In this document: positions 9,001-12,000 of the stretch, piece by piece
Layout of the letters: every line of letters starts with the position of its first letter
How positions within the stretch are numbered: the stretch's first letter is position 1
Origin: a virus
Taxonomy: Duplodnaviria > Heunggongvirae > Uroviricota > Caudoviricetes
IMG/VR virus record: IMGVR_UViG_2541047425_000010
Strand: one strand, 5' to 3'
DNA: 18,707 nucleotides
Position numbers: made by a program

Positions 9001-12000
9001 TTTGCGCAGCATGCCAGAAGAAGGAACTGTTCCCCTGATCTACCCGAGCCATTTGAGTATGAGTAGCACTGTCTGGCCTGTGGAAGGTTTGAAGAAACCC
9101 AACGCAATCATGCGCAACGACGAGACAGAAAAGTGGCTTTACCCGAACGGTTTTTATTGTGTGGTGCGTCGTTTCTCGTCGAAGGAGGAAAAGCGCCGAG
9201 TGGTAGCAAGCGTCGTTGATCCTGCTACCTTCAGTGAGTATTCAGTGTTGGGATTTGAAAATCACATGAACGTGTTTCATGAGAACAAACATGGGTTACC
9301 CGAGGCGCTGGCCCGTGGCTTGGCCGTGTTCCTGAACACTACCGCAGTGGATAAGTATTTCCGTCGCTTCAACGGGCATACACAGGTCAATGCAACCGAC
9401 CTCAAGATGATTAAGTACCCAAGCCGTGACACTCTGATAGAGCTTGGCAAGTGGGCTATGCAACAAGAAACTCTCACGCAAGAACATATTGACGCTAAGC
9501 TAGGAGCTCTGACTGCATGAACAACCAAAATGATTATATTGAGGCCGCTCAGCAAATTATAGCATCCTTAGGCCTGCCCAGAGCGCAGCAGAATGAGCGT
9601 TCTGCTTTGTGTTTGCTGGCACTCCTGAACCTCACACCGGGAAAAGCATGGGCCGACGCGGAAAATCCGCTTGTGGGCATTACACCAATCATGAATTGGG
9701 TTCGGGAGCACTACGGCAAGGTCTACGCACCCAATACTCGTGAGACATTCCGCCGCCAGTCTATGCATCAGTTCTGCGCTGCTGGAGTAGCCCTCTACAA
9801 TCCGGACAAGCCCGATCGCCCAGTGAACAGCCCGAAGGCTGTTTATCAGATCGAACCTGCTGCTCTGTCCATGCTACGCACTTTCGGCAGCCCGGCATGG
9901 CACGATAGCCTTGCAACCTATTTAGCCGAGCGTGAAACGCTGGTTACCCGCTATGCTAAGGAGCGCGAACAGAATCGTATCCCTGTTGAAATTGCTGCGG
10001 GCCAGCAAATAACCCTCAGTCCCGGCGAGCACAGCGAACTTATCCGTGCCATAATAGAGGACTTCGCCCCACGTTTTGCTCCGGGTAGCGTGCTGGTCTA
10101 TGCTGGCGACACTGGCGAAAAGTGGGGCTACTTCGACGCTCCACTGCTGGCCGGGCTAGGTGTTGATGTGGATTCACACGGTAAAATGCCAGATGTGGTG
10201 CTACATTTTACTGCGAAAAACTGGCTGCTACTGGTTGAGTCTGTCACCAGTCATGGACCGGTTGATGGGAAGCGGCATGCTGAGCTTGCCAGGCTGTTTG
10301 CCGGATCAACAGCCGGACTTGTCTATGTGACCGCTTTTCCAAATCGCTCCATCATGGGGCGATATCTTGGTGAAATCGCATGGGAAACAGAGGTATGGGT
10401 GGCTGATGCACCTTCTCATCTTATTCACTTCAACGGAGTGCGATTTCTTGGCCCCTACTCTACTGAATGAGAACAGGACCAGATAAATAGCCCGGCCCAT
10501 GCGCCGGGTTTTTCTTTGCATATCCCCTCCTGTTATCTGTCCCCTTAAAAAATAAATCACTTTAAAAATCAGTTAAGTAATAATTTCTCGTCCTTAAAAA
10601 AGCACCGACGGTATTTACATGAAAATAACCGCAAGTTATATTTATTTCAAGCCAGAAACATCGCGCCCTTACACAGGGCTACATAAATCAGTCGTACGGC
10701 GCGACTTAACCCGCCGCAAAATGCTCTTTAACAATCTGGAGCTTTACAGCGTCAATGACCTGTTTAGACCCCTACACGTAAACGTGCTGTATCATCGGGT
10801 GCGATCCGGTCGATGAGAGAGTATCCCCGCGCGAGAGCGAGAACGGCGTGAGAACGGGCAACACTGGCAGGAAGTTGGCGCTGACCAATACAGGGAATGT
10901 TTTGGGGTGTGGTGAAGGGTTCATGGACGGGAATATGTCGCACGTAAAGCGGCGAGGCCCGAGGGACTATTGCTGAAGATAAGTAGGCCGAATCGGGTCG
11001 AAATGGGTCTCCCACCTGCCACATCGCCAAAGCATTTCCGAGAAAGGACGGTATTGACTGCGTGTGATGCCGGGGCTATATTGGGCGAACACCTTATAAA
11101 ACGGGTGTCGGGATTCTCACCCCGCTGACAATCGAGGCGATACAGACGCGCCAGCGTCTTTTTTTGTATCGACATACACGCACATCTTATCAATGGTGGG
11201 CTGTATGGGGCCGACTTCGGTCGGGCTGGTTCCCTTGATTGCCAGTTGTGAGAACCCTGTACAGTCCACCGCCAGCGAGCTTCTCACCTCCTGCGGTGGT
11301 TATTAATCACCAATCAAGGAGGCTGCCATTATGGCTACTATCCCAGTCCTTTCTCAACCTGAAATCACCATTTCCAATGGCCGCGCTGTTACTACGTCCT
11401 TTGCCGTTGCCGAATATTTTTGCAAGCGACACGATAACGTATTACGTGCCATTGCAAATATTGAATGCTCAGAGAAATTTAACGCCCTCAATTTTGAGGA
11501 CGTTACCTACACCGACGCCAAAGGCGAACAACGCCCAATGTACCAAATCACCAAAAACGGATTCGTCTTCCTGGTGATGGGCTTCACTGGTAAAAAAGCA
11601 GCTGCATTCAAGGAAGCCTATATTGCTGAATTCGATCGCATGGAAAAACAGCTATGGGAACAGAAACAACTGGCTCTGTCTTCTCCTGCGATGAATATCA
11701 ATTTTCCTTTATCGTGGTTTTCAGAGCATCACCCCTACGCCACGATGAACTATGTTGATCGCAAGGTTATCAGCCTTGATGCTTCCGTACTCTTCGACAT
11801 GCCAAGCCCAACTATGCGCATCCTCAACGAGCTACACAGCAAGGGCTATAACGTTGACGCCGCTGTCGCCGAATTTAACGCCTTCAAGCATCTGACGGAA
11901 GAAATGCGCCGTAAATTGCTGGATATTTCCCGCACATCGGAAAAATCTTCCCGCTTTGGTTTCAACGTTAATCTTTAATTAAATCTCTCCCCGATTATAT

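Follow-up and report, generated by a model that had tools for sequence, protein, structure and literature searches.

A probable composite of a boxA-linked RNA domain and a C4-type antisense cassette in the N slot of a Shiga toxin-type prophage

In the immI region of phages P1 and P7 (c4-icd-ant1/2), a promoter is followed in order by the elements a1 and b1, the antisense RNA C4 with its elements a' and b', a2, b2 and a ribosome-binding site; the annotated P1 record gives P2c4/P1c4, a1, b1, C4, a2, b2 and the icd start codon, and allele-specific complementarity within such cassettes is the basis of P1/P7 heteroimmunity. In P1, C4 acts at a2/b2 to block translation, and ant is not fully repressed without it (PMC8198154). 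The isrK-orf45 (STnc1160)-anrP locus of Gifsy-1 has an IsrK promoter of its own, a leaky terminator, an orf45 that resembles non-coding sequence and gives rise to an RNA of ~80 nt, and an antirepressor-type gene downstream. In lambda nut and in the phi80 'nutL' leader (M11919/X13065), boxA comes ~75 nt after the start of the PL transcript, with structured RNA behind it; rrn leaders are arranged boxB-boxA-boxC and involve NusB/E/A/G, SuhB and S4; and HK022 put, an RNA element in the early leader of a lambdoid phage without N function, is a ~70-nt two-stem RNA at the PL transcript start with a putR twin. Here we compare these systems with positions 10614 to 11330 of IMGVR_UViG_2541047425_000010, an 18,707-nucleotide virus record (hereafter the window) from an Eru1/Oslovirus (Sepvirinae) Shiga toxin (Stx)-type prophage of the group of PA2 and TL-2011c.

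The studied region is 100% identical to that of the Stx2a phages PA2, PA8, VT2phi_272 and ArgO145 and of O157:H7 prophages, and 96-98% identical to that of TL-2011c, P13374 and Ss-VASD. The plus strand reads cI, a restriction-modification (R-M) pair, PL and rha-kil-gam-recT-exo, and because of this gene order we take the 860-bp gap between the endonuclease gene and rha (10471-11330) to be the head of the early-left (PL) operon. A sequence-only reading had described most of the gap as one protein-free structured leader of about 680 bp, standing where an N gene would be expected, that could be an N-independent antitermination element (put-like or rrn-like) or a cis-regulatory leader gating the early-left operon. 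The features it listed are all present, at most one base from where it had placed them, and its premise that the region acts as RNA held up. The unity of the leader did not, since an internal promoter (11054-11082) and an intrinsic terminator (11144-11165), both missed in that reading, split the region. We consider it probable that two RNA-level control modules, at 10614-11035 and 11054-11330, together fill the slot that N has in lambda, and that N is absent. Searching positions 1-32000 of PA2, used as a stand-in on account of its identity across the region, by tblastn with the N proteins of lambda, 933W and phi80 returned no homologue below E = 0.25, and a PHROG scan of the small early open reading frames (ORFs) gave kil, gam and unknowns. 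This agrees with the report that Eru1 phages have no homologues of lambda N, CII and CIII (PMC8044961).

The downstream module is a P1 immI-type antisense switch, and this assignment is solid. Its elements lie as follows.

11054-11082, plus strand: predicted internal PisrK-type promoter, TTGACT-17-TATATT, 6 nt before the IsrK 5' end
11089-11165, plus strand: IsrK-like small RNA (sRNA), made up of hairpin 1, hairpin 2, linker and terminator
11113-11120: a1, AUUCUCAC, in the loop of IsrK hairpin 2
11129-11137: b1, CAAUCGAGG, in the IsrK linker
11144-11165: intrinsic terminator of IsrK
11189-11276, plus strand: C4-type antisense RNA, closing stem 11194-11210/11255-11271
11211-11224: UUCG hairpin of C4
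11225-11246: C4 hairpin 2, with b' CCUUGAUUG (11233-11241) in its loop
11248-11254: a', GUGAGAA, in C4
11272-11274: CCA, directly behind the C4 closing stem
11266-11322, plus strand: target region in the rha 5' untranslated region, with the hairpin CCACCGC/GCGGUGG (11266-11272/11293-11299)
11281-11287: a2, UUCUCAC, presented in the loop of the target hairpin, 5 nt after C4
11311-11319: b2, CAAUCAAGG, 12 nt before the ATG, overlapping the rha Shine-Dalgarno sequence AAGGAGG (11316-11322)
11331-11978, plus strand: rha, the first early-left gene

Both RNAs were matched by Rfam covariance models above their gathering scores: IsrK (RF01394) with 58.7 bits at 11089-11164 against a gathering score of 50, and C4 (RF01695) with 77.1 bits against 45, over its full length (model positions 1-87). 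P1's own C4, which has the same fold, scores 68.8 bits. The sequence-only reading had proposed an Rfam search as a check; it paid off in this 3' part, and the structured domain upstream (D1, below) matched no Rfam family. The two hairpins that it had cited in support of an antiterminator belong instead to this known antisense module. The UUCG hairpin CCGAC-UUCG-GUCGG is the first inner hairpin of C4, and the 7-bp stem CCACCGC/GCGGTGG presents the target a2. The CCACCGC arm of that stem is also the 3' arm of the C4 closing stem, and the two structures compete for it. In other alleles a compensatory change keeps the target stem, with CUCACCACC/GGUGGUGAG in place of CCACCGC/GCGGUGG (in DNA letters, CTCACCACC / GGTGGTGAG). 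The CCA behind the closing stem is the sole hint that C4 may be matured by RNase P; P1 C4 is said to be matured from a precursor by this enzyme, as Hartmann et al. reportedly found in 1995.

The likeness to P1 extends to spacing, with a1 ~25 and b1 39 to 41 nt from the transcript start in both (+25 and +41 in the window). The internal promoter holds the position of P1c4, and b2 lies at a ribosome-binding site in both phages. Unlike P1, the window has no icd, and its C4 is aimed at the regulator's own ribosome-binding site; the protein under control belongs to the Rha family and is not Ant1/2; the a1/b1 leader, closed by a strong intrinsic terminator, makes up a separate sRNA, IsrK; and the module stands under a lambdoid PL, in the N slot, with no C1-type operator evident. 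The isrK model also matches P1 (NC_005856, L231) at 218-312, its a1/b1 leader, with 35 bits, which is below the gathering score. The same P1 interval, where a hairpin is followed by a T-run, is covered by RF03163 (c4-a1b1), a member with RF01695 of clan CL00128. IsrK and the P1 c4 leader therefore appear to be homologous, and we read IsrK as the a1/b1 leader of an immI-type operon, fitted with a strong terminator. We did not find orf45/STnc1160 equated with C4 in the literature examined, and IsrK and c4 still appear as unrelated, separate entries in a 2025 review. The 3' module is thus of the C4/immI kind in a variant architecture (no icd, Rha as target, a terminated a1/b1 sRNA) and of the Gifsy-1 locus type; joining IsrK with c4 is a useful clarification, not a new system.

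Allele comparison supports the pairing scheme. The Rha protein was used to fetch 79 loci, and in 74 the cassette lies directly upstream of a rha-like gene. These loci hold 35 distinct cassettes, across which the -35 and -10 positions of PisrK are kept in three unrelated upstream contexts. The 33 cassettes usable for allele analysis carry 8 a' and 10 b' alleles in 20 combinations, and the corresponding a1/a2 or b1/b2 partners fit every allele, often via G-U-compatible changes. The covariation is three-way, linking the C4 element, the IsrK decoy and the rha target. For example, cassettes that are otherwise nearly identical have the IsrK and target triplet CTC (window), GCT (TL-2011c) or AGG (Lyz12581Vzw), and their C4 triplets GAG, AGC and CCT are the reverse complements. 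Cognate pairs are predicted to be more stable than non-cognate ones for b':b2 (-14.2 versus -7.0 kcal/mol), b':b1 (-13.8 versus -5.7 kcal/mol), a':a2 (-9.1 versus -3.4 kcal/mol) and a':a1 (-10.1 versus -4.9 kcal/mol), and only 0-5% of non-cognate targets bind equally well. Because the a and b elements come as many reassorted alleles, we regard the cassette as a specificity (immunity-like) system.

Two further cassettes were seen in the course of this comparison. Genomes of the PA2 type have a second isrK-C4 cassette, in PA2 (KP682371) at 5311-5573 on the minus strand, before a second rha-like gene (4642-5319); its alleles, a' GUUCGAA and b' UGGUUUC, are orthogonal to those of the first, so one phage would carry two C4 switches that do not cross-react. 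The cassette of locus L035 (~1208-1515) has a hybrid a allele, in which a1/a2 are AGC-type, a' is the complement of the GCT type and a2 has one additional base; it looks like a recombinant, possibly mismatched in part.

On this basis the cassette would work as follows. The dedicated promoter would give the IsrK-like sRNA, mostly ended at its own terminator, and the read-through RNA, like any PL transcript, would carry the C4-type RNA. Pairing of b' with b2 would cover the rha Shine-Dalgarno sequence, helped by the loop contact between a' and a2, and Rha translation would be off. IsrK, whose a1 and b1 mimic both targets, would titrate C4. Shut-off of Rha by C4 is inferred here from complementarity and covariation and is experimental for C4 of P1. 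Competition of IsrK for C4 matches activation in trans of antirepressor translation in Gifsy-1, where anrP translation rises ~140-fold with IsrK in trans, IsrK nt 28-31 pair with 'orf45' nt 159-162 (a C4-like region), PisrK transcription partly passes the IsrK terminator, and the ~80-nt STnc1160 is processed from 'orf45', whose nucleotide and not peptide sequence is conserved (PMC4825925). The presumed regulated protein, Rha, has an N-terminal domain matching PF09669 (Pfam, 2.1e-32) and matches phrog_995 as well as anti-repressor PHROGs over residues 107-212, suggesting an antirepressor-like C-terminal half. The proposal that the leader gates the early-left operon is borne out for this 3' part, which would gate the first gene of that operon.

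The upstream module consists of the PL promoter and an untranslated leader with the following features, all on the plus strand.

10614-10642: PL-type sigma-70 promoter, TTTACA-17-TATATT, predicted transcript start ~10648-10650
10665-10679: 5' leader hairpin, GCCCU-UACAC-AGGGC
10690-10706: pre-boxA hairpin, AGUCG..CGACU, or alternatively CGGCG..CGCCG at 10697-10716
10722-10734: boxA, the rrn consensus UGCUCUUUAACAA
10749-10881: D1, a closed six-helix RNA domain of 133 nt starting 14 nt after boxA
10749-10754/10876-10881, 10760-10764/10866-10870 and 10770-10772/10856-10858: D1 helices P1, P2 and P3
10775-10778/10783-10786, 10792-10801/10807-10816 and 10828-10830/10848-10850: D1 helices P4, P5 and P6
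~10897-11035: D2, a long imperfect hairpin with a closing stem of ~20 bp

The hexamers of the PL-like promoter, which the sequence-only reading had pointed out, align column for column with promoters of the heteroimmune phages phi80 (beside the annotated O-L region) and Lyz12581Vzw, and homology to Lyz12581Vzw starts at ~10648, the predicted transcript start. The boxA is better than the near-perfect match that had been claimed for 10722-10735: TGCTCTTTAACAA agrees with rrn boxA at 13 of 13 positions (10722-10734) and is the sole exact match in the window, where a simple calculation gives a 13-mer ~6e-4 chance occurrences over 2 x 18.7 kb. It lies ~75 nt into the PL transcript. The 5' leader before it (10665-10716) is moderately conserved (65-95%), the alternative hairpin at 10697-10716 ends 5 nt upstream of boxA, and the pre-boxA hairpin has a counterpart in phi80, GGCGGAC-AGCAA-GUCGCC. 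No boxA-like 13-mer was found on the minus strand of 1600-7200, the PR side. Elsewhere in the window, TGCTGTTTAACAA at 12894-12906 on the minus strand matches boxA at 12 of 13 positions, antisense to the early-left operon and within the 5' end of recT; relatives have TGCTGTTTAACAA or TGCTGCTTAACAA there, and this site may simply reflect conserved codons.

D1 emerged from a broader set of loci. A 22-nt leader motif retrieved more than 120 viral contigs, yielding 100 usable loci (93 distinct), and the block 10722-10885 shows 86-100% column identity with diverging flanks. A boxA-like 12-mer is found 74-80 nt upstream of the P5 motif in 93 of the 100 loci, again as a conserved island between variable flanks. 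The structure was derived from an alignment of 22 diverse members and has 30 pairs in six helices; 98% of its cells are paired, compared with 29-46% when the partners are slid, and 10 pairs are changed on both sides, compared with 1-4 when slid, a result reached by none of 500 shuffles. The closing stem, for instance, switches from CAGCGUC/GGCGCUG to GCACAU/AUGUGC. The supposition that boxA is joined to a conserved structure is therefore confirmed, and covariation supports that structure. Likewise, no convincing ORF had been seen, and in the 22 relatives no frame is open across D1 on either strand; the P6 arm has indels of 4, 7 and 9 nt.

The D1 covariance model scores 195.6 bits in the window. 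Neither nhmmer over 1.6 Mb of loci nor the covariance model over 29 sources found a second copy or a PR-side twin, and each phage has one copy, at PL. D1 is absent from 933W, Louie, HK022 and P1. It occurs in at least 111 distinct loci. In 95 of the 111 it stands at the PL position, with a CI-type gene ~1.5 kb upstream on the same strand and kil, gam, recT and exo following it. Directly after D1 come the isrK cassette, a homologue of phi80 N or many unrelated ORFs. Clustering 3824 ORFs from the 111 loci gave no conserved protein partner near D1 other than CI upstream and kil/gam/recT/exo downstream. A genome-wide pattern scan gave 19 matches, of which 9 are complete D1 domains in Enterobacter, Kluyvera and Escherichia; a complete D1 is also present in Edwardsiella phage Edno5. 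The remaining matches, in GC-rich non-enterobacterial genomes, are partial and were dismissed as chance. The papers and databases searched held no description of the D1 fold, its breadth or its independence from an N-like gene.

Other observations concern D1 itself. At 16 or more loci (e.g. L183, L167, L127 and L108) a strong Shine-Dalgarno sequence and a mini-ORF of three codons (MKH stop) lie directly 3' of D1, and behind this mini-ORF are several hundred bases of structured, seemingly non-coding sequence. D1 and the a' element of C4 have the 8-mer GUGAGAAC in common. We judged this to be chance because D1 keeps the 8-mer in phages with other a' alleles.

Compared with known antitermination sites, the 5' module has a boxA in common with nut and rrn leaders and departs from both lambda nut and put. 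The window lacks the 15-nt boxB hairpin of lambda nut, having a 14-nt spacer and then D1 after boxA; it has neither N nor nutR, and its boxA is that of the rrn consensus. As in rrn leaders, the boxA 13-mer is identical, a hairpin stands just upstream of it, and a long untranslated transcript follows with no phage protein apparent. We know of no counterpart of D1 in rrn leaders. The closest relative is phi80: its leader from the annotated O-L to the 'N' CDS is 95% identical to window 10722-11038, has been in GenBank since 1985, and is labelled 'nutL regulatory signal' in M11919. The homology stops exactly where the cassette promoter begins, which indicates that the cassette occupies the slot of the phi80 'N' gene.

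The function of boxA and D1 has a leading explanation, which we hold tentatively: Nus-dependent, N-independent antitermination. PL transcripts would begin with an untranslated leader of ~440 nt holding boxA and D1 and then D2. boxA and D1 would load host Nus factors onto the PL-started RNA polymerase, which would then withstand Rho across an untranslated stretch of ~690 nt and continue past the IsrK terminator into rha-kil-gam-recT-exo. Polymerase started at PisrK would mostly stop at 11165, giving IsrK, with occasional read-through giving C4; such transcripts would terminate because they are without boxA and D1. Host Nus factors are the most economical partner because D1 is always coupled to a consensus boxA, D1 outconserves the downstream proteins and N is absent. 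Nus factors can block Rho without N (PMC5725501).

Several points weigh against this picture or parts of it. D1 is found only at PL, whereas nut and put sites come as pairs, one left and one right. To our knowledge, rrn-type Nus complexes mainly counter Rho and are not known to beat strong intrinsic terminators. The same region in phi80 is annotated as the site for a phage 'N', and phi80 was reported to work with such a protein here. A search for 14-mers with at most 2 mismatches gave no convincing operator common to PL and PR, so repressor control of PL rests on positional homology with the phi80 O-L. Both promoters, C4 processing by RNase P and the efficiency of IsrK termination are predictions; in the cassette, the regulated protein is Rha-family and no icd-type ORF accompanies it, a departure from P1; and the Gifsy-1 model of orf45-anrP coupling cannot be carried over unchanged, because the window equivalent of orf45 stops 24 nt before rha with no stop/start coupling. 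The Gifsy-1 locus also differs in that the window cassette stands behind PL and a boxA leader.

Extending the leading explanation, 10722-10881 could be a self-sufficient antiterminator that uses host factors only (NusB/E, NusA, NusG, SuhB), with D1 replacing boxB and N and supplying early-left antitermination of the lambda N type. The rrn-like, N-independent option of the sequence-only reading would then hold for this interval. We see this as a real but tentative possibility. It would account for the exact rrn boxA at a fixed 14-nt distance from the D1 closing stem, for the strong conservation, compensatory pairs and near-invariant joints of D1 in front of unrelated downstream genes, and for the 68 of 80 D1 loci that have neither a homologue of N nor a small Arg-rich ORF within 2.5 kb; it also suits an Eru1 phage without N that has a strong intrinsic terminator in the path of its PL transcript. 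It is weakened by the single copy with no PR-side twin, by the diversity of N-like proteins, which is too great for similarity to prove their absence, and by the lack of any such element in Rfam or the literature searched and hence of a precedent for its parts. The wider claim that boxA and D1 are a new class of cis-acting RNA antiterminator, a large folded RNA that needs host Nus factors alone and replaces N in a large enterobacterial lambdoid group, is slightly less likely. A different view takes boxA and D1 as a nutL receptor for a phage protein (the phi80 'N' of 1985 or an unrecognised factor), persisting in an N-less phage as an inherited relic from before the isrK-C4-rha cassette took the place of the gene that followed the leader. 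The 'nutL' label of M11919, the N CDS 36 nt past the end of homology, the abrupt end of that homology at the cassette start and the clear dispensability of D2 all fit, yet a phi80-N homologue is present at only 4-6 of 80-100 D1 loci, the phi80 'N' lacks an Arg-rich motif and belongs to an unknown-function PHROG, and the window boxA is nearer to consensus than that of phi80. A relic would also not be expected to show such column identity and compensatory pairs over at least 111 loci, including those of Enterobacter, Kluyvera and Edwardsiella phages, and we regard this view as unlikely. Rather unlikely, too, is that D1 and D2 serve the processing, stability or translational control of the leader and have no effect on termination (RNase III/E sites or the source of a stable sRNA). 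D2 does place its stem at the position of the structured N-leader of 933W and phi80, and the nutL-to-N interval of lambda is highly structured with a role in N translational control (PMC5725501); against this, D1 is invariably coupled to boxA, and once N is lost, the leader has no ORF upstream of the internal promoter that it could control.

A coding role would have the conserved sequence specify a small leader protein, an orf45-like peptide (11193-11306) or an N-terminally extended Rha. The ATG at 11193, in the 5' arm of C4, is conserved and in frame into rha in most other alleles, both PGAP and phrog_995 model a longer protein (the latter with ~100 extra N-terminal residues), and SPA-tagged orf45 of Gifsy-1 was detected, its authors explaining activation by orf45-anrP translational coupling (PMC4825925). 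However, the frame is stopped in the window, L035, L062 and L079 alleles, the 37-aa window ORF overlaps C4 and has no Shine-Dalgarno sequence before 11193 (its TAA is at 11304-11306, 24 nt before the rha ATG), and what is conserved is RNA pairs and antisense elements, not the peptide, as was also concluded for orf45 (PMC4825925). Across D1, the closed frames and the P6-arm indels likewise speak against coding, and a 65-aa ORF at 10619-10816 begins inside the PL promoter and is not kept in phi80-type leaders. We consider coding very improbable. The put-like option raised by the sequence-only reading, in which the leader would bind RNA polymerase directly without Nus factors, is scarcely credible. 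Its support is one 24-nt hairpin, 10689-10712, where AGUCG-UACGGCG-CGACU-UAACC resembles the base of putL stem I, AGACG-AACGGCG-CGUCU-UUAAACC (putL numbering was checked against PMC9378689); the resemblance includes a compensatory A-U to U-A swap. This hairpin competes with the pre-boxA hairpin, there is no stem II or other similarity to HK022 PL-putL, and a blastn comparison of the leader with the HK022 immunity region yielded only chance-level matches. D1 has no sequence or structural homology to put and, unlike it, is linked to boxA, lies away from the transcript start and has no twin; the presence of boxA itself points to Nus factors.

D2 appears to have a separate history. It is 92% identical to the nutL-to-N stretch of 933W and also occurs in the N-leaders of phi80, HK106, mEp234 and Louie; its covariation is weak, with only 7 distinct sequences. 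Phages of the TL-2011c and Lyz12581Vzw types have a mini-hairpin at this position, which shows D2 to be dispensable in N-less phages. By analogy with the structured N-leader of lambda, D2 may serve the processing or translational control of N, and in the window phage it may be a leftover.

The surroundings of the two modules are as follows.

707-1666 and 1878-2543: LpxR-family outer-membrane lipid A deacylase gene and NinI-like metallophosphatase gene, beside ninG
minus strand: cro-like gene, helicase, primase and NinG
7243-7956, plus strand: LexA/CI-type repressor
8051-10510, plus strand: type II R-M pair, Eco57I-type methylase and BsuBI/PstI-type endonuclease (endonuclease end 10470)
10489-10510: strong terminator behind the R-M pair
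downstream of rha, plus strand: kil, an unknown ORF, gamL, recT, exo and ssb

The R-M pair sits between cI and PL, the rexAB/moron slot. The sequence-only reading had found the leader more GC-rich than the flanking phage genes; this is true of the downstream early genes (37-47%, against 52-57% for 10700-11300) and not of the R-M genes upstream, which are equal to it (50-58%). The left end of the window is unlike the O157:H7 reference prophage in carrying the LpxR-family and NinI-like genes: in the related prophage NinH and Q come after NinG, and ninH-Q occupy that place. The source of the window is a mosaic relative and not PA2 itself. RefSeq/PGAP calls rha a pseudogene with an internal stop, 11205-11978 (L001 9735-10508).

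For annotation, IsrK, 'orf45'/STnc1160 and C4 would be parts of one immI-type module, and the 'pseudogene, internal stop' call for rha, like the longer PHROG profile, stems from the ORF that in other alleles is read through C4 into rha. Half of the finding is an already known system. Eru1/Oslovirus Stx phages are reported to form very unstable lysogens (PMC8044961) and are carried by highly virulent enterohaemorrhagic Escherichia coli, and the finding bears on how their early transcription proceeds without N, CII and CIII. A polymorphic P1-type switch on a Rha/antirepressor-like gene behind PL could influence induction and the cross-talk of co-resident prophages. The boxA and D1 part, a conserved unannotated RNA, may provide N-independent antitermination and is directly testable in medically important phages. 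If it does so, the group with this antiterminator would include TL-2011c, the Stx2a phage of the 2006 Norwegian O103:H25 outbreak strain, as well as P13374 (O104:H4) and the PA2/PA8-type (O157:H7) Stx2a phages.

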